Assembly: GCA_039621445.1 (NCBI GenBank)
Contig: CP154954.1
Location: forward strand, 41,905,572 to 41,969,571
Origin: Euglena gracilis
Taxonomy: Eukaryota
Direction: 5' to 3'
DNA: 64,000 nucleotides
Shown here: positions 6,701-61,100 of the stretch, piece after piece
Position numbering within the stretch: the first letter of the stretch is position 1
How the letters are laid out: each line of letters begins with the position of its first letter
Position numbers and translations under genes: made by a program
Notes under the pieces: model-generated
The model's database searches: none
Told to the model about the DNA's origin: nothing
Seen by the model: the letters and a program-made list of their open reading frames with translations, nothing else

Positions 6701-9700
6701 CGACTTAGAAAACCCCTTTATAGTGACCCCAAAAAGTGGGTCACTGAGACGGGGGGGGGGGGCAGGGTGTTTGGGTGTTTGGGTGTTTGGGTGGTGGGGT
6801 GAACCCTGCGTTTTAAAGAAAAAACCCCTGATAGGAACTGACTCGTTTTCAAAGAGTGACCAAATTTTATTTTTTGAAAGTCGAAAGTGACCCCTCCCCC
6901 CTGGGTCATTCGAAGTGCCGAAGGTTTTTTTTTTGGGTCCACACGCAAGGGTACCCGCTTAGAGGCCCCCCCTCGGGTTTTCCTCAAAATAGTAAGCTTC
7001 TAATTGGGGGGGGGGTCAGTTTCCTGGGGGTGCGAGGCAGGCTGAACCCTCGGGGGTTTGGGGGGGATGGGTCTCTGAGTTTCTGGATTGCCTAAATAGG
7101 CAGGCTCGCCCCCCCCCCCCAGTTGTGGGCCAAAATTCGCCCCAAAATGGGGCTTTTCTCAGCTTCCGCCGCCGAAGGCTCCGGAGCGCCTTGACCGCGG
7201 GCCCAGGCAGTTTTGGCGACGTGCACAGGGCGGGGGATCGGACCTGGGGGTAGTGCCTGCCCAGGCGCCCAGGCTCCGGGGCAGACATTCATTCAGTGTG
7301 GTACACCAAGGTTGTCATTTTGTGGTTCACGGTGGACACCAAAAAAATATTTGTGGTTCACATCTGGACACCAAAAAAATTTCCCACCTCCTGCCGACAT
7401 TTGCATCATTATTTTTTTTCTAAACAGCAATGAAGCAATCCTCTTTGAACATGTTTGCCCAAATGAAAGCGAAGCAAAATCAAAGGAAATGTCTGGCCTT
7501 GCCCGAAATATGGCCGATTTACGGCCCAAAACAGTGCGGCCAACTGGCGACTTAGCCGTTTTTCGGCCCTGTTTAGGGTAAAAAAAATCAAATTTTCTAA
7601 AATTTCTCGAAAATGGTGGGGAGTCAAAGGAAACGTCCGGCGACCTGAGTTGGCCCTTTGAAGCTCTGTCTAAGCGTATTTTGATTTCCCTGCAAATCTC
7701 TGCCCAGCCAATTTTGGCCATTTTGTACATTTTTGGTCTGTTTTGATTTAGCCGTTTTAGGCCATTTTTGGGTTAAAAGGGGCGAAAAAAATCGGGAAAA
7801 AATCGAAAAAAGAATTTGCCCGAAATGATGTTTCCCGGACCCAGAAGAACTGTTTTTGAGCCGAAAATAAGCGTTTTCCCACCCGCCCCCCCCCCCAGAA
7901 TGGCCAAGATCAGAAGATGGGACCCCTCCCCAATAATGATATTGCCCCCCCCAGTTGAACCCCTCCCAATTATTTTATTCTCACAAAATAATTTACACTT
8001 CAGATGCCCAGATATATCTCCCCTGCCATTTTTCTGCGAAAGAAATCAGGTGACGTGGATACTTTAGCTCCGGAACAGGCTGTTTTTTTTAGTCGGGTGC
8101 CGACCCCGCCACAGGGGGGGGTGCCTGCCTGGGCAGGCACTCCAAGGCACTCCCGATCCGAATCCCCCCAGTAGGGCACACGGCCAAAAGTGCCCTAGCA
8201 CAGACCCTGGAGCCAAAGGTGCCGGGGAGCCAAAAATGGCCTGTTTTCAAAGGAATGTGCCTGGTCGCAGGCCGAAATCCGACCCCGGGGGGGGGTAGTG
8301 CCTGCCTGGGCAGGCACCCCAAGGCGCTCCGGACCCCCCCCTCCCCCCGGAGGTTGGTAAATACCAGCCTGCTCCGGAAATGGCATGTTTTGACAAATTG
8401 ATTGGTTTGCTTGGAATGCTGATAGATAGATTGGAATGCTGAAATACCACCGATGTGCCAAAGATGGAGGGAGGGCGATCTACCTTGTTGCATGAGGATG
8501 CCGGTACACAAAACCTGGAGGATCCCGAGGAATCTGATTTGTGATTGTTTGTAATTGGAGTTACCTTGAGTCAAATCCCATTGGATGACCAACAAAAAAT
8601 TCTCACCGTCTGTACTGAAAAAAAGTTGGAAAGTGCCCAAGGGATCAAACGTCGTTTCCCGTTCATTCCGGCCGAATGGCTGCGTTTCGGGGCACGGCCT
8701 CCGCCCAGGGAAGGGTCGAAGGGGCCTGGCCCAGTCCGACGTGCCGTACAGCCACCTGCTGCCCCTCGAGCAGACCACCGCTGAGGTGGCGCCGCCCTCG
8801 TTTCAGGCTCGCCCTATCCGTTGGCCAGCTCGGTGCAACCCACTATTTGGTCACAGCTTTGCCATTACTTTCAGCCCCTCCCCGGCAGCCAGGGACAGCG
8901 CCTCGCGCCGAGATGACCGGGCCCCGCCCCGCCGATACGTTCAACGCGGGGCTGTTCTTCGTGCCTGCGTCGCCGGCCAGCATCGCGGCGTTCGAGTGGA
9001 TGATCGCCGCGCAAGGGCCCTTCCTGCCCCTCAGGGGACTGCCCCTTCTTGGCTGTCCTGTCTCTAAATCAGCTGTGTGACGGTGCCCCAACCTGAACGT
9101 GTGCTGCGTGCCCCAGGGTCCTGTTTAACCAGCGAGCAGGTTTTTTCAGCCTGGTTCCCTTCCTGGTTGCCTGCTCCGAGAGCACACAAACGGTACCAGC
9201 CCTTTTGCAGGTGCCAAAATTGGCATGTGATGAGCAAAGGACCGGTCGAAAGTCGACTACCCAGCTGAAGTTCTGGGTCTCAAATCAAATCAAACAAAAC
9301 CAAACCAAATCTTTACATTAATTTCTAACTATTTGCGGCTCTTTCTCTTCTTCTGTTTTCTTTGCCTGGGTCGCTCTGCGGAGTCAGCAAAGAGGTAGCG
9401 CCCAATTGACGGGCCTCATGTCGCACGTGACAGGCGCATGCCAGCACATTTGCGCGCATGCCTGAACCCACAACTTGCACTTCTTCCTTCACCGGCACCG
9501 TTGAAAGACCCCTGGGCAAACAGTTTTCCCGATGAAGTTCAGCTGATGTTGTTGATTTAGAAACGCCCTGGCCTTGGGGTCTGCACCAAGCACCTATAGC
9601 TAATATGGCCTAAAATGGCCTAAAATGGCCTAAATCGCCTAAAATGGGAAAAATTCTGTTCAAGCATATTTTGAAGGCAATTAAACAATTTAAACAACAT

Positions 9701-12700
9701 CCTTGCATTTCCAAATTATGATGAACAAAAAAGTGTTATCATCTCGCCGCCTTTCAGGTGGCAATCTCAAAGTTCGACTCATTTTGTTGGCCCAATCAAT
9801 AATAAAAAAAGTGTTATCATCTCGCTGCCCTTTGGGGTGCAAACTCAAAATTGACTTATTTTGTGACTTCTAAACAAATCAAATGTCATTGAAGAAGAAA
9901 TGGTGTGATTGTCATTACGTTGAAATTAGACGGTATGAGTTGTTTCTTCTGATGAACCAAACTGAACAAGGTTGTTTCCACGTTGATTTGCTTTTGCAAA
10001 CAAAGTGAAGCGTCCAGATTAGTGAAGTGTGGTATTACACTTTGAACACAATACAAGGTTTGAGGATTTCCTCAGTTTCCATGTGCTTATTTTTTTCTGG
10101 GTTTCAACAGCTTTGTCCAAAAGTTTCAGCAAGTTTGTCCAAATGGTGTCAATAACCCTGTCCACTCATTGTATTACTAAATAAGAGAAGGTTTGCACAC
10201 GTCATGATGCAGTTTTCGGGACAATAATGTCGCAAAATTATGATTTTCAGAACCCCCACCTATACCTAAAATGGGTGGCCTAAAATGGCCTAAAATGGTC
10301 TTAAATGGCCGAAAATGGCCTAAAATGGCCGAAAATGGCCGAAAATGGGGGAATTTTTGGGCTTGACTATAGGCTATAGATAGGTGCTTGGTCTGCACCA
10401 TCTTGCCCAGGGTCGGAGTGAGATTCTGTGTTAACCCTCCACCAACCCTCTTGCGCGGCAAGGCTCAGGGGGCTGATCTGCCAAAACAAGAACCAAAATT
10501 GAAGGGAGAAAAATGTGGCAGAAGCACAACCGCCAGGGTCGTCGGCCCGACGATGTTATTCATCGCCTCGCACGCCCAGTGCCTTTTCTTTTGCCACCCC
10601 TCCCCCTTTCCTGTGTTGGCCGACCCCTTTCGCTGCGAGGCCCATCCATCTCCAGTACCATGTTCCGAAAATACGAAAACTGGTATCATTTTAGAATCAA
10701 AATCAAATTTTGCTTCCATGTACGTTTTTGGGGGTTGGGTCGTTGGAAAAAAAAGTGGGCGGGCCGGCCCCGGGAAGGGAAGGGGCCGTGCCGGGGAGGT
10801 GGATGCCGGCCGGGTCACCACTGATGACCAGCCGCTCTACAACCGCGCCTTCTGCGCCGCCCCCCGCCGGCCACCGTCCCCAGCCCCCCCCCCCCCCCCA
10901 GGAGGGGGCTTGTTAATAATGGGGTTTTGGGGGTAGAGAACCTACCGACCTGCTGGTTCCGGGGGCTGGTCGCACTTTTTGGCGCGCCTGTTTTCTTGGA
11001 TTTGACGCTTCCCCGATAATCATGCCCGCTGCCCCGATATATACCGAAAAATTGCCAAAATTTTGCTATTCTGGGGTGTTGACCAGCAGTGCTTCTGACA
11101 ATAATGGGGTTTTGGGGGTGAGGAAACCAGCTGACCTGGTCCCGGGGGGGCTGGTCGCACACCCCCCCCCCCATTTCCTGGCCTGGCCTGGGTTGGTGGG
11201 TGGGTGGGTGGGTGGGTGCGGGGGCCGCCCCACGGCCGGCGCAACGCGACGACGTGCCACTTCACCGCCCCGGCGTCCACGGCGTCGCTGGAGGTCCGGT
11301 TCTGGCCGCAGATGATGGCGGCGAACGGCGCGGTGGACGGCCGGGGGTCCGCGGTGCCGCGGGCCCCATTTTGGTCCGTCCGGCCGGGCACCCCCCCCCC
11401 CTCCCCGGCAGGGTGTCGCCAGGGCATGTCCTCACTGGCCTGGAAGGTACCCCCCCCCTTGTCTAAGCACCAACCCCCCCCCGGTTCTTACCCATCTTTT
11501 TAAAGGTCATCGTTCCGGGAGGTTTATTTTGTGTGCATTTTTAAGGGAAATTTCTCAAAAAATTCGAAATTTCTGCAACTTCTGAGACCTGATTTGGTGA
11601 GGTATTGTTGATTTCTGCCTCCAAATTTGTGTAAGTTCAACAGCGGACCTCCAAAATAAGGGGAATTTTTTCTTTTCGGCGCGAAGCGAAGCCGGATTTT
11701 TTTTTTGCAGTTAAATTTTTGCTCCTTGTCTAAGCACCACCCCCTGGTTCTTACCCATATTTTGGCAAAATAAGCCCCCCGGTTCTTACCCATCTTTTCC
11801 GGTGCTTAGACAAGGGGGGGGGAGGTATGTCAGCATGCAAATCCACATGCACAAAAAGTGCACACCGACAACGAAGAGAGGGGAGGGGGAGGGAGGGAGG
11901 GAGGCACACAGCCGAGTTTATCTCTGGGGGAACTATAACACCGAAACGTGGCACCGCCCCCCCCCCCCCGCCCCCAATGTGTTGGCCTCTGGTTTGTGTT
12001 ATTATAAGCCAGTTTGCCAACTGTGATGCCATGAGGGCTGAAGCCAGCTTCGCGGCCGGGGGAGCAGGAACTGCCAAGCGGAGTTGCGCGTCGATGCCTT
12101 AACAGATCAACTGCCCCTTGGACACAGACCTTGCCCCTGTCCAATGGCTGCCCTGTGGCCAGTGATCACCCCTGATCAACGGACCGGAGGGGCCCCTGAC
12201 CCCCTGTCGCGAGAGAGGGGGCGGAGGCTGGGGTGTTTGTGGGGACCCCCCGCGGCCCAGCGCGCGCCGCCGGGGCCATCCAGCGGCGGGGCTTCTTCTC
12301 CTTTGCCTACCGGGGGCTGCGGCCGGTGCTGCCGGGGCAGATGTCGCTGCACAACAACTGCATCAAGGCCGGGCTTGCATTTCGGAAGACCCCCCCCCCC
12401 GGTCTTCACCGGGTGTCCGCGGCAGAACCTTCCCGGGGGCCTGGGAATGGGTCCAGCCAATAAAAAAGTCTGGTGTTTTTTTTTAAAAAAAACAATGGGC
12501 AAAATGGTAGATCATTGGTCGTTGTAGGTTTTTTGTGGCAAAAACTGAAAATATGTGCAGGGCTCCAGAAATCAGGGGAAATGGTCAGAACGATCCGAAA
12601 ATGAGTTCAAGGCCTGGTTTTTTTTGTTGATCCTTTTGCAACTCCCCCTCTTGCCCCCCCCCCCCGAGGTCCCTTGGCAGGTGGCCTCCTGTGGGTCTAA

Positions 12701-13134
12701 AATGAAAGCCTGCTCAAGAGCCTGGCTAACAAGCTGACCCGCCAGAAGAAGGCTGGGTTATGTACATGGCTTCATTTAACACCTGTGTGACCCCTCCCCC
12801 CCAGAGGGGGCGAGTGGGTGGGTTTTCGGTTCCTGGGTGGGTTGGGGCTGCTGGACCCCCTGGGGAGTGTGCCATGTCTGGCCCGGCCAAAGGCCGGGCT
12901 TGGGAAAATAAACTTCTTGCTTCTTTCTTTCAAGGGGTTTCGACTGATTTAGGGTGGGTTTGGGGTGGGTGGGTGGGTGGGTGGGTGGGTGGACCCCCGG
13001 GGGTTATGTGTGGGTGTGTTTTTGAAAAGAATGGTGGAAATGTTTGGGACCCAGGAGAAATGGCCTCCACTGGGTGTCACTAAGTGAATCCATGGTTCTG
13101 GTGGCTAGACGAGGAGGGTATCTGTCTTGTGTAA
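794..13134 (+). CDS. Nucleotide-diphospho-sugar transferase (GT77-like, GT-A fold), multi-exon, 5'-partial
   Basis: Hand-spliced exons 794-890, 2365-2436, ~4119-4156, 4670-4726, 8734-8785, 8889-9008, 10796-10865, 11232-~11345, ~12266-12366, 12718-12761, 13100-13134 give family motifs in order: VVMLTTSTIGYLDFVLNF..HYVIAALD, IDSDVVLFRNPLP (DxD), YAQSD, FNAGLFFV, DDQPLYN, MAANG, HNNCIKSLANKLTRQKKAGLWWLDEEGICLV*. Exons between 2437 and 4118 (e.g. MYEAGAAL near 3271) and upstream of 794 are unresolved. Confidence 0.85.
891..2364 (+). other. Nonconventional intron (GG...CC)
   Basis: +4 CAGCCTCC pairs with GGGGGTTG ending at -6; removal gives CTG G|AT TTC = GYLDFVLN. Confidence 0.8.
2564..2681. mobile_element. 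hAT-type MITE
   Basis: TIR CAGGCTGTTTTTT/AAAAAACAGCCTG; TSD GGGCCGAC/GTGCCGAC; same family as 8076-8371. Confidence 0.82.
3445..3945. mobile_element. MITE family with AATTGACGCCC/AATTGTCACCC subterminal repeats, diverged copy
   Basis: Collinear with 26153-26648 and 62465-62973 (shared core TTTCAGATGGTGTTCTTGGTCATTT); ends approximate. Confidence 0.78.
4157..4669 (+). other. Nonconventional intron (GG...GC)
   Basis: +4 GAGGGTGGCG pairs 9/10 with CGCCCCCCTT ending at -6; removal gives DSDVVL|FRNP. Confidence 0.75.
4949..5371. mobile_element. TA-flanked MITE
   Basis: TAACCCCCCCCTAA...TTAGGGGGGGGGTTA ends; internal repeats of CTCTTGTAGTGGAC; related copy at about 1992-2237. Confidence 0.65.
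6043..6379. mobile_element. hAT-type MITE with GTGCGCCGCGG internal repeats, nested in another repeat
   Basis: TIR CAGACGTTCATTTAGTGCG/CGCACTAAATGAAAGCCTG; perfect TSD GTGCTGGC (6035-6042, 6380-6387). Confidence 0.9.
8076..8371. mobile_element. hAT-type MITE
   Basis: TIR CAGGCTG.../...CAGCCTG; perfect TSD CTCCGGAA (8068-8075, 8372-8379). Confidence 0.88.
9009..10795 (+). other. Nonconventional intron (GC...GG)
   Basis: CAAGGGCCCTTCC pairs 11/13 with GGAAGGGGCCGTG at +4/-6; removal gives WMIA|EVDAG in frame. Confidence 0.75.
11448..11827. mobile_element. TA-flanked (Tc1/mariner-type) MITE
   Basis: TA-C-run-TTGTCTAAGCACC ... GGTGCTTAGACAA-G-run-AGG-TA inverted ends. Confidence 0.8.
12367..12717 (+). 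other. Nonconventional intron (GG...AA)
   Basis: CGGGCTTGCATTT pairs 12/13 with AAATGAAAGCCTG at +4/-6; removal gives HNNCIKSLANK. Confidence 0.8.
12762..13099 (+). other. Nonconventional intron (GT...CT) made of a whole MITE copy (12765-13094)
   Basis: CATGGCTTCATTTA/TAAGTGAATCCATG stem at +4/-6; removal restores KAGLWW; body is homologous to 23469-23774. Confidence 0.85.
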
Positions 13135-14490
13135 TGGCTCCTCTCCGCACTTCAACAAAATTCCCCTCCCCTTCCCTCTTTCCCTGCCTTTGTGTGTCTG
13201 AATGGAGGGTGCCGTATAACTCTCCAGATTGCGGCTGGCCACCATCCTCGCAAAAACTCCTGTTTTGACTCTGTGCTGTATGGTTTTTACGATTTTTTTT
13301 TCAGGACTGATCTCTGCTGTGAACTAAATTCACAAATGGATCAGCAATGATAGGGACATTTTCTGCATTGTGGTGATTTAAGGGGAATCGAACCATGTGA
13401 GGGTTATTATTTGGGCAACCTTTTCAACCTCAATATATGACCCTCACAGCAATTTACCATTTCCTCTGGACCCAGTTTCCCCCACAATTCTGGGCTTTGG
13501 CTGCTTCGCTGCTTCGTACCACAAAAACTGATCACGGGAGTCCTGGTCAGTGAACGGGAGGGGGACCCCTAAATTTACTCCTAACGGCCTAAATCCTGAC
13601 CCTAACCCAAACCCTGTTCCTGTTCCTGACCTTTTCCCTATTAAGAACAGGCGAAGAAGTGTCCCTGGTTGACTGAAAGGGTGCGGACCCCTTCACCCAT
13701 CAAGCCGCATCGACTCCCCAGGAAGTAACCCCCCCAAATAACACCCCCCCCCCCCCGGTGTGTTATTTGGGCACCCGAACTGGGCCCCCAGGGGGGTGTG
13801 TGTGTTATTTTTACATGGAAAACCAAAGGAAAACAGGGGGGGGGTGTTATTTGGGCGCTCGAAATCGGCCCCCGAGGGGGGGTGTGTTATTTGGGGGGGG
13901 GTGTTATTAGGGGGGTGTGTTATTTGGGAGGGGGGTTTATTTGGAGACCTCACCCTCCGCCTCACAGGGCAAAACTTTTCCTTCGCACTGCACTGTGAAT
14001 TTTATTTTTGGTCCAATCACAGAACGGTGTAGGGCTGTTTTGGCTGGGGTTCTCACCCTAAGAAAATAATGGAAATTTGGCAAATGTTCTTCCTTTCTTC
14101 CTCACTCTGAAAATGGCGGCCATTCTGAATGAAAATGGCGGCCCCACATAGTTGTTGAAACAGCTTTGTAGGCTGTCAGATATTGTCTGTAGCTTTTTTG
14201 TGCCAGGTTTGTATGTATGTTTTCTCAATCCACAACTGGCAGCCTTGAGTGCGGAAACTCTTCCAGAACGTGCAAATTTATTTATTCTGTGGCATTTTTT
14301 TTGCAGTTTTTGCAGTCCAGGCTTTTGCCTGCCGATGTGCCTCTTTCCTTCACCCCCTTTCAACCCACTTTTGGGGGGTTTGGGGGGTTCACCCCCCCCC
14401 CCGCCCAAAAACCTCTGGCTCGAAGGCACACACATTGCGGAACCCCCACACCACCATGCTTGCGCTTCGGGGAACGGCCGGTGCCTCATC

Positions 14491-14515: not shown

Positions 14516-24992
<10,477 letters not shown>

Positions 24993-28095: not shown

Positions 28096-56111
<28,016 letters not shown>

Positions 56112-58130: not shown

Positions 58131-61100
58131 AAGCGAGCGTGCATGCGTGCATGTGTGCGCACATGTGTGCGATGTGTACTCCTAATTCCACCAGCCCTGT
58201 GGCCGAAGGGATCACGTCTTGGAGAGGGAATGCACACGGCTTGGGCAACCGTCAAGTGCATCATTTGTGTCACCCCATGCGTCATTTCAGTCCCATCGCC
58301 TGCAGGACCATCGCCTCTTCGCCAGCCACAACTGCCGCGGCCACTACGACAAGGTGGTGCCGGAGTGCCCGCTGTGCGGCCAGTTGGTCCCCACGGCCAG
58401 GGGCGGATAGCCAACCTTTGGTCTCACACACAAACATGTCCAGCGCGAATGAGGGGGGCAGCCGAAGGCTCCACTCGCAGACCTTGGAATGGGAAGGCCC
58501 CCCTGTATGTGCAACTGGCAACCGTTTAGAATGGACGCAGCTCACACATTTTAAGATATTCCACCATGCATTTGCTGCCAAAGCAGTGGCACCACCACTG
58601 GCAACTCCCCCCCTCCCCACACACATGTTGACGAACCCCCCACGCCGGCCAGAGCGTCTCTCCAGAACCCCCTCTGTGTTGTCTGCCTTGTCACCTCCCA
58701 TTTTCGCTGTCAAAGAGGAGTTCCAAAACAATAGAAACACTCAAAAATGAGTTTTTTTCCCCTCTTTGGGAGGTGGACGGGTTTTGTTTATCATGACCCA
58801 ACCTGTTGACCCGGGTGGTAACAGCATCCCCTTTGACATCCCATTGATTGACAAAAATCGACCCCCCAGGCAATTTTTAACGCTGGGTCATTTCCACTTC
58901 ATCCCTGAAATGAGAAGCCCAACGACACACAAGAACATTGCCCTATTTTCTCCCCTAGTTGTTTGCAAATGCATGCCCCGCGGCAAACGGGCCTTATCTT
59001 GAAAAGAAGCTTTGACCCCACCCCAGCACCCCAGGGAGGTCCAGCCCGCCAGCAGCCTTTTTCCAGCCAGCAGCCTTTTTTCCAGCCCTGCACCTCCCTC
59101 CCCCCCCACCCATCAGCGAGTTTTATTTATTTCCAGCCACCCTTTGGGCCGCTGGACGACAACAGATTTTTGGCATTTGTGGGTGCAACAACAATCGGCC
59201 GAAAAACGGGTCAAAAATGGGCGAAAATGGGTCGGAAAACGGCTGTCCGGGGCCCCGGGGCAAATTTTGGATAAAAAAAACGTTGTTTTTTTGCATTTGC
59301 CAAAATTGGCATTTTTTTGACATTTTTGCAGTTTCTATTTTTGGTACCCGTTTCGACACCCCCAGTCAGGCCCTGTTCCAGCCCTGGGGCGTGGCCATGG
59401 GGGGTCAACCAGCAGCCTTTTTCCAGCCAGCCCAAGTTTTTCATCCTCTGAGCTAGACCCCCCCGGGGGGGGGTCGTTGAAAAACACCCTGGTGGCAAGT
59501 CTGTTGTTGTTGTTTTGGGGGCAGATTTTTCAAAACGACCATTGGGCCCGGAGCGCTGTGCAAGCCGAAGCTGAAGGATCCCAGGGTCCACTGGCTGGCA
59601 GTCTCAAGCTGGAAAGTCACTGGCCACTTCACCCTGGAGATGGGGGGGGGTCTGGTCCCCCCCGACAGGAAAAAAAACAGTATCTTCCGTCGCTTTGCGC
59701 CAATGTGGAGACGAGGTTATGGTGTATATTTCTTTTGTATTTTCATCCCAAATAGCTTCCCAACGTTCCAAAAATGGACATCTCTGGCATGTTTTGGGTG
59801 TAACAAAAGGAAATTCTGGTGCTTCGTGCCCCCAAGAACCCTGGGTCATGGGGGAGGAATGTTGGCCAGAATTGTCAGTTTGCATGGTGTTTTATTCGCT
59901 CCTTCCTGCGGCTCACAACCAAGATCCAAACCACGCCGTGTCCGTCCACATGGAAAAGGTACGACGGCTTGCCAGTGTGCGCTTGCCCAGTAGAGCCATG
60001 GTGGAGGGCCCAGGACCCCCGTGAGCCCAATTGTGATGGTGAGTGCGTGCCCGTCTCGCCAAACTGTTTTTCCAGTTTATGTGCAGCGCCACCGTGCATG
60101 CCCCCCCCCCCACCTAGGGCTGCCCGCGGGAAGGGAAGACCGCGTCCCCGCAGCCCCAGCGCCTCAATTTCTGCGCCTTCCGGGACTGCACCGCCAACGA
60201 GCACGTCCTCATCCGCTGCAAAGCATGCGGCAACTCCTTCTGCGTCCCACACCGCCTGCAGGTCAGCTGCCTCTCCCACACCTCCCCCCCCCCAGACAGG
60301 GAGGTCCATAGAGGACAAGTTTTTTTTAAAACTCAGGACTGTCTCTTAAGGACCGCCCTTGGCCAAAGGGCCGGCCAAGTTGGCAGTCGAACGGGGTCAA
60401 AAATGAAAAGTGAGAAACATTTTTCATACGTCCAGATATAGTTCTGAGCCTCGTACACAGTACCTCCCCCCCCTTGTGACAAATGCATTGTTGGTATGAA
60501 ATGATTTTAAGACAATTTTACCCCCCACCTATAGGAAAAAATGCTCGAAAATGGCCGAAAATGGCCGAAAATGGCCGAAAATGGCCGAAAATGGCCGAAA
60601 ATGGCCGAAAATGGCCGAAAATTGCAAAAATCGGGGGGTCAACTATAGGTGCTTGCCCTTGTCCAACGACCGGCCTTGTCCAACGACCCCCCCGGTCAGT
60701 AGCGATCTTTTTCCAGGTGATATTTTTTCCAGACGTTTGTGTTCTGTCAGAGTATAGACCACACAATTGCAAAGTTTTTTTTGTCTAGTTTCCTGCAAAT
60801 CAGCAACTTTTGGCCTTTTTTTGGCCCCTTTTTTTGGCCAGTTTGGACCACTTTTGGCCACTTTTGCCCATTTTGGGCTGCATTTGGCAATTCAGACCAC
60901 TTTGTTTGGATGCATTTTTGCTTCCAAACATTTTTGCTTTATACCAATTTTCGGCTGCTTTTGGCTATTTTTGCACATTTGTGGCCATTTTAGCCACTTC
61001 TATTGCTTTTATCCACTTCTTGCCCCTTTTTGGCCACTTTTGGCCATTTTGTGGTCACTTGCACAGATTCAGTGACTGCAATTTTGTAATCGATGGGCGC

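Follow-up and report, generated by a model that had tools for sequence, protein, structure and literature searches.

Nonconventional (NC) introns form the majority class in Euglena agilis, with 71.8% of all introns, and are removed according to a genetically defined code, 5'-N3CDG-/-CH'GN5-6|R, with a strict donor spacer of 3 nt (Nomura et al. 2025, PMC12501133). Of the NC introns, 61.2% conform to this pattern; splicing was lost upon single changes in CAG or CTG, and the derivative motifs CGG-CCG and CGG-CTG have been shown to splice in Euglena (PMC12501133). Further characters of the class, which is found in euglenids or diplonemids, are excision as a full-length circular RNA, removal later than the conventional introns and the lack of a U1-type 5' site. 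The most conserved bases of these introns are CA/TG at positions +4,+5/-7,-6 (Milanowski et al. 2014, PMC3935182). Inverted and direct repeats led in 2014 to the proposal that these introns originate from MITE-like elements (PMC3935182), an idea restated in 2016, 2018, 2024 and 2025, with the origin called unclear in 2025 (PMC12501133). In the openly accessible text of the literature, we found no NC intron that had been shown to belong to a repeat family.

Here we analyse the last intron of a gene in a 64,000-nt stretch of Euglena gracilis DNA, referred to as the window. It shares with the described euglenid NC introns the slidable non-GT-AG borders, pairing that starts from +4/-6, spacers of 3 and 5 nt, the CA/TG bases and a downstream purine (PMC3935182, PMC12501133). 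In contrast to the published NC code, it has CAT/ATG, i.e. T:A as the third pair instead of G:C, and unlike the introns for which a MITE origin has been proposed in the euglenid papers, the whole intron here belongs to a repeat family of which other copies exist elsewhere.

Comparable cases exist outside the euglenids. Introners, known from Micromonas, Aureococcus, dinoflagellates and others, also consist of a mobile element plus part of a target duplication, the composition that we propose below, and share with the last intron inverted and direct repeats at the junctions (PMC11282704). However, Introners are mostly spliceosomal, with GT-AG or adapted sites, and occur as many near-identical intronic copies (PMC11282704). 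The ends here, by contrast, are non-canonical and not GT-AG, a single copy has RNA evidence, and with about 64% likeness between them the copies are old. Introns with terminal inverted repeats in Amoebophrya and Fritillaria borealis resemble the present one in their non-canonical junctions, their inverted repeats and a proposed MITE origin (PMC11282704; see also PMC7789003). The duplications in Amoebophrya measure 3-5 nt, compared to 8 nt here, and in Fritillaria removal by the spliceosome is favoured, whereas the intron described here follows the euglenid splicing code (PMC11282704).

Among DNA transposons, Merlin families with 8-bp duplications have been reported in E. gracilis (PMC8101967), and the present element resembles them in its short inverted repeats and its putative flanking repeat of 8 bp. 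Merlin ends begin with GG and those of the element do not, and the element family therefore does not fit Merlin. The hAT transposons also generate 8-bp target duplications, and many of their termini begin with CA, as do those of the element; its CATRG departs at the third base from the hAT consensus YARNG.

Results

The last intron is removed from the mRNA

The region around the last intron represents the 3' end of a plus-strand gene with short exons, in a window that is repeat-rich and has 55% G+C. Motifs of the gene presumably resemble those of glycosyltransferase family 77 (GT77). A Pfam search of 15 single-exon frames (6 + 9) gave no relevant match, only one chance hit to SepRS_C at E 0.25, and the frame 8619-9077, used as a protein query, returned no homologue at E <= 0.01. 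These searches confirm neither the GT77 label nor the conserved status of G-L-W given in the original prediction.

A search for sequencing runs that contain the stretch listed no RNA run. Reads from two RNA data sets (X21 and X24) and transcript contigs (X1), all with the same species label, were aligned over positions 10400-13700 together with a DNA run (X20). In the RNA, a joint 12760->13099, with two ambiguous letters, skips 338 nt; it is supported by 10 X21 reads with 10 starts, one X24 read and one X1 contig of 1732 nt. The joint is absent from the DNA run (0 reads), where the filled site is present in a 437-nt contig covering 12364-12798, and RNA depth is 0 in the bins 12842-13063 inside the intron. 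The last intron of the gene is removed from the mRNA exactly at the site proposed from the sequence alone, the predicted junction 12761/13100 being one of three equivalent placements of the joint. The exons and the intron are defined as follows.

12718-12761, plus strand: next-to-last coding exon (44 nt if the nonconventional register is used), ending in G-L and the first base of W (joints 12362->12714 and 12760->13099).
12762-13099, plus strand: last intron, 338 nt, nonconventional, GT..CT with the equivalents TG..TC and TA..TG (RNA joint, pairing register).
13100-13134, plus strand: last coding stretch, W-W-L-D-E-E-G-I-C-L-V, with the stop codon TAA at 13132-13134 (sequence, RNA, open frame).

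The upstream joint, 12362->12714, is likewise seen in RNA, with 5 ambiguous letters. Joined together, the RNA-supported exons form a single open frame across all junctions with the C-terminal end G-L-W-W-L-D-E-E-G-I-C-L-V, and RNA depth runs on past the stop codon to about 13285.

A second allele or paralogue is also spliced at the last intron, with synonymous differences directly after the junction in the RNA reads (a loose end at 12762 in 3 X24 reads; 13107 A>G in 5/14 X21 reads). The intron is present in at least two haplotypes, and the X20 contigs differ from the window at 3 of 155 intronic nucleotides. We also note that throughout 10804-13181 a second allele or paralogue accounts for about 30-50% of the RNA reads at many exon positions, e.g. 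12304 T>C in 9/17 reads and 12727 T>C in 8/15, and that the X1 contig represents this second version.

The intron body is a member of a repeat family

Between its borders the intron reads GTA, a 330-nt element and GTTCT, in agreement with the original prediction, leaving 8 intron nucleotides outside the element. The element and its relatives in the window are listed here.

12765-13094, plus strand: copy 1 of the MITE-like element (330 nt), in which 12952-12992 form a (GGGT)n tract (blastn, nhmmer, alignment A1).
12765-12778, plus strand: 5' terminal inverted repeat of copy 1, CATGGCTTCATTTA, also the 5' half of the terminal RNA stem (sequence, pairing).
13081-13094, plus strand: 3' terminal inverted repeat of copy 1, TAAGTGAATCCATG, also the 3' half of the terminal RNA stem (sequence, pairing).
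23469-23774, plus strand: element copy 2, 306 nt, with perfect 14-nt inverted repeats and a pyrimidine after 5 or 6 nt (blastn, nhmmer).
54852-55022, minus strand: copy X, the 3' part of the element, whose tail ...CGCTAAATGAAACTTTG ends at 54852, with weak similarity to about 55122.
54527-54631, minus strand: copy Y, the 5' part of the element, with the head CATAGATTCGCTGA at 54631.

When 12700-13160 was compared with the window by blastn, the counterpart of 12764-13094 was 23468-23774, at 63.7% over 364 columns (E 7.8e-15), and that of 12944-13037 was the minus-strand stretch 55008-54908, at 76.9% over 104 columns (E 2.2e-15). An nhmmer profile built from both full copies recovered the minus-strand stretches 55022-54848 (E 2.2e-18) and 54631-54527 (E 5.1e-13), the next match in the window having an E-value of only 0.0012. 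Of the relatives named in the original prediction, the sister copy is thereby recovered in an end-to-end alignment with inverted repeats in both members, and two partial minus-strand copies are found where one partial inverted copy near 54853 had been noted. The family in the window hence amounts to two full and two partial copies; the four pieces are collinear in alignment A1, with conserved ends and a G-rich, variable interior. As inverted repeats, the 14-nt arms of copy 1 are identical at 12/14 positions and those of copy 2 (CATAGATTCATTTA / TAAATGAATCTATG) at 14/14. The 21-mer at 12771-12791 has three occurrences in the window at <=3 mismatches, versus 0.00 expected from 100 shuffles, and 0 matches in a metagenome scan.

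Outside the element, copy 1 shows no resemblance to copy 2 on either side (P 0.18 for the left flank, a score of 0 for the right one), and homology therefore stops at the inverted repeats. An extension of the homology into the exon was considered, as ATGTA is common to the left side of both copies, and was rejected at P 0.18. In the DNA run, the bin 12731-12841, which holds the 5' end of the element, has a word depth of 5791 compared to about 15-80 in most other bins, with a C-run in this bin that may inflate the copy estimate. In contigs of the same run that come from elsewhere, the ends of the element enclose different interiors, as in 12800->13075, where 38 other letters intervene.

The element is thus MITE-like, being short and non-coding, bordered by terminal inverted repeats and present in multiple copies at unrelated sites. 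The two open frames of copy 1 match no Pfam family, the first frame of copy 2 has stops, Rfam gave 0 matches on the window, and among the 102 long frames of the window, inspected by eye, no transposase was seen. As the copies are about 64% alike, neither the element family nor the insertion of copy 1 looks recent.

Copies X and Y are arranged tail to head, separated by 54632-54851, in which a 204-nt insert occupies 54640-54843. If this insert and one copy of its flanking repeat are left out, just 8 nt remain between the X tail and the Y head. The two overlap in element coordinates (about 78-330 and 1-125+), and they consequently represent two tandem copies, not one permuted copy; a single circularly permuted element made of X and Y was rejected on the same ground. 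The arrangement reflects either a tandem pair or the trace of a circular or multimeric intermediate. Long microsatellites of the types (ATAG)n, (CATA)n, (CA)n and (CAACA)n are found at 21900-22900, 24000-24450, 31900-32100 and 45700-46020; such arrays surround copy 2 and recur through the window.

The last intron is nonconventional

The three placements that give the same mRNA have the ends TG..TC, GT..CT and TA..TG; 0/3 are GT-AG, and none ends in AG or AC. The intron had originally been read as an ordinary one starting with GT, a reading that does not hold: it ends in CT and is therefore not a GT-AG intron. Only the register 12762-13099 combines pairing from +4/-6 with a purine after the intron. 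In this register the terminal stem consists of 5 pairs, one mismatch and 8 more pairs, i.e. 13/14 positions including one G.U, and the nucleotides outside the stem correspond to the two spacers of the published code (PMC12501133).

12762-12764, plus strand: donor spacer GTA, 3 nt, equal to N3 of the code.
13095-13099, plus strand: acceptor spacer GTTCT, 5 nt, followed by the purine G13100, corresponding to N5-6|R of the code.

Non-GT/C-AG borders, terminal pairing, spacers of 3 and 5 nt and a downstream purine are all found at the last intron. The motif CDG...CH'G (+4..+6 / -8..-6) is not, the intron having CAT/ATG with the third pair T:A for G:C, which places it among the roughly 39% of NC introns that are off the published pattern.

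The stem has a duplex energy of -15.0 kcal/mol, and 14% of random 24-mer pairs from the G+C-rich window are as stable. Folded as a whole, the 338 nt perform no better than shuffles (z 0.29), and the minimum-energy fold includes the terminal stem. The duplex energy is not exceptional, and the argument stands on the register and on the family. Taken together, the last intron belongs to the nonconventional introns of the euglenid type, which are defined by a hairpin, and it is at the same time one copy of a short inverted-repeat element.

Other introns of the gene share the stem geometry

Four further introns of the gene, all RNA-supported, have the same stem geometry as the last one, so that it is found in 5/5.

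9009-10795, plus strand: intron Z, GCG|CAA...GTG|CCGGG|G, with the arms CAAGGGCCCTTCC and, as reverse complement, CACGGCCCCTTCC, 11/13 by reading.
10866-11231, plus strand: intron A, slidable over 5 positions, the chosen register having a 4-bp stem and a purine (X1 record 1; X24 loose end).
11339-12277, plus strand: intron B, GGC|CGG...CCG|GGGCC|A, with a nested high-copy inverted-repeat element inside (RNA joint).
12367-12717, plus strand: intron C, GGC|CGG...CTG|CTCAA|G, with a 7-bp terminal stem (RNA joint).

Support for intron Z comes from loose ends at 10796 (X21, 16 reads; X24, 8 reads; X1, one contig), and the register of intron A was selected by stem and purine. Introns B and C carry the published motifs CGG-CCG and CGG-CTG, respectively. 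By themselves, the NC geometry of all five introns and the two Euglena motifs point to a euglenid host, probably Euglena. Compared to random 24-mer pairs, introns Z, A and B have terminal duplexes within the most stable 0.5%, and intron C within 7%; the duplexes of C and of the last intron are unexceptional in stability because their stems are A/T-rich. The possibility that the other introns are whole-element copies as well was rejected, since none of them has a full-length copy in the window.

Several further observations concern these introns. Shifted by one base to the right, intron C would have GC-AG ends, corresponding to the 'intermediate/hybrid' type of the literature. Within intron B, positions 11450-11822 form an element with perfect 22-nt inverted repeats (C9TTGTCTAAGCACC...) and AGGTA on both sides, i.e. 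a 5-bp direct repeat; the word depth in X20 reaches 1e5 to 4.5e5 over 11399-11842, which indicates a very high-copy family nested in this intron. Intron A contains an 81% direct repeat of about 61-64 nt (10915-10975 and 11100-11160), and a sequence related to it lies in the opposite orientation near 31157-31261. Tandem repeats of 10 nt, of the GGCCTAAAAT / GGCCGAAAAT type, are located in intron Z at 9590-9665 and 10270-10365, and again 50 kb away at 60536-60651.

The element is flanked by an imperfect 8-nt direct repeat

The excised RNA equals the element plus 3 + 5 nt, i.e. the element plus 8, as would be predicted from a target-site duplication of 8 bp, provided that splicing takes out the element together with one duplication's worth of sequence. 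The corresponding 8-mers are as follows.

12757-12764, plus strand: left 8-mer, GTTATGTA, left copy of the putative target-site duplication, 5/8 identical to the right 8-mer.
13095-13102, plus strand: right 8-mer, GTTCTGGT, right copy of the putative target-site duplication, 5/8 identical to the left 8-mer.

The mRNA retains the first five bases of the left 8-mer and the last three of the right one. Taken alone, an identity of 5/8 has a chance probability of about 0.03. The flanks had originally been interpreted as a target duplication; of this, an imperfect direct repeat in the expected register stands, whereas its two members agree at 5/8 positions only. Over all five introns of the gene, the in-register 8-mers are identical at 23/40 positions, compared to 9-17 of 40 in 12 shifted registers and to 2.15/8 for left and right 8-mers taken from different introns (binomial P for the in-register count 4e-5), with registers set by stem and purine before the 8-mers were counted and with slidable junctions inherently adding matches.

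At copy 2 the flanking 8-mers, CATGTACA and CTCAACTT, match at 1/8 and form no flanking repeat, and copies X and Y have one element end each. The 204-nt segment at 54640-54843, itself an inverted-repeat sequence with the short inverted ends CCCTG...CAGGG, is flanked by TTCCGGGC and TTCCGGAC (7/8); TTCCGGRC matches at only three places in the window, and these flanks account for two of them. As this segment is bordered by an 8-nt repeat, elements with 8-bp duplications seem to exist in this genome.

Discussion

Based on the RNA junctions, the pairing register and the comparison of copies in the window, we propose that the last intron is an NC intron made of a complete MITE-like copy and 8 nt, which arose by insertion with an 8-bp duplication and is removed by NC splicing; we assign this explanation a probability of roughly 0.65. 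The 330-bp element would have inserted into uninterrupted G-L-W-W codons at the target GTTATGGT, duplicating 8 bp. In the pre-mRNA, the two inverted repeats are predicted by the computed pairing to form a stem that brings the exon ends together. The NC splicing of the host would then cut on either side of the stem, at a distance of 3 nt upstream and 5 nt downstream, ahead of the purine, where the junction is given by the RNA reads and the cutting rule by the published Euglena work. As the excised part equals the element plus exactly one duplication's worth, the original reading frame would be restored, and 3/8 positions of the intronic duplication would later have drifted by substitution. As we saw neither an intron-less orthologue or allele nor an empty site, the gain of the intron and its direction are inferred. 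The origin from a mobile element put forward in the original prediction accordingly stands in so far as a full family member plus 8 nt makes up the intron and homology ends at the repeats; the reading as an ordinary intron starting with GT does not, which changes the mechanism.

Other explanations need to be weighed against an insertion of this kind. An NC intron that spreads by itself, for example as an excised circular RNA followed by reverse transcription, would make copy 2, X and Y other or dead introns and would require no DNA transposon in the exon. NC introns are reported to leave as full-length circles (PMC11282704, PMC12501133), and the 8 nt between X and Y after removal of the insert are what a circle junction of element + 8 nt would give. 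Yet X and Y overlap in element coordinates and hence represent two tandem copies, and in-register 8-nt direct repeats are a prediction of DNA insertion. The setting of copy 2, amid microsatellites, with a pyrimidine at the purine position and no obvious adjoining exons, speaks weakly in the same direction, and we regard a self-spreading intron as unlikely. A similarity of copy 2 and the partial copies that stems from segmental duplication or gene conversion of the intron locus, instead of transposition, would account for the similarity alone and for nothing further; the flanks are unrelated between the copies, and the DNA run contains additional variants with other interiors as well as a high word depth at the 5' end, making such an origin exceedingly improbable.

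The element might also be secondary to the intron. Nested insertions do occur in this gene, as in intron B with its high-copy inverted-repeat element at 11450-11822, and an older NC intron at the same site could have been filled or replaced by a MITE that did not create it. However, the splice sites are set by a stem that consists of the element's own inverted repeat, and the mere 3 + 5 nt outside the element are similar to the adjoining exon bases, as expected of a duplication; we consider such a sequence of events very unlikely. An ordinary spliceosomal intron of the U2 or U12 type, with unusual ends and containing a MITE by coincidence, would be compatible with the GT at the start of the register 12762-13099 and with in-frame AG acceptors at 13083-13084 and 13107-13108. 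Neither AG is used in the RNA at the reporting threshold, though, no register ends in AG or AC, the last 28 nt of the intron are not pyrimidine-rich, only 8 intron nucleotides lie outside the element, and the +4/-6 stem geometry is common to all five introns of the gene, so that a spliceosomal intron is highly improbable.

Insertion of a MITE-like element with an 8-bp duplication, followed by NC splicing, is therefore the explanation that we favour, and it raises a broader question as to the NC cutting rule. Since 3 + 5 = 8, NC splicing takes out the element plus exactly one duplication. Tentatively, and with doubt prevailing, the rule itself could represent a precise excision, at the RNA level, of inverted-repeat transposons with 8-9-bp target duplications. 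In the gene studied here, 5/5 RNA-supported introns have in-register 8-nt repeats, and one of them is still a recognisable family member. If this idea is true, decay of duplications would have left the slidable direct repeats that are reported at 84% of Euglena introns, and inverted-repeat transposons would be the ancestors of most NC introns. In the open-access literature, as far as its accessible text extends, we found no account that equates the 3 + 5 spacers with the length of a duplication.

In conclusion, the last intron is of the known NC kind with a variant motif and gives a concrete case for the hypothesised transposon origin: its junctions are proven by RNA, and its entire body belongs to a repeat family that has further copies elsewhere. 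The CAT/ATG ends represent a natural variant that is usable in the published knock-in splicing assay. Moreover, the hypothesis of a MITE origin becomes a countable test in Euglena, through the numbers of introns that are whole elements, of 8-bp repeats flanking them and of their absences in related species.
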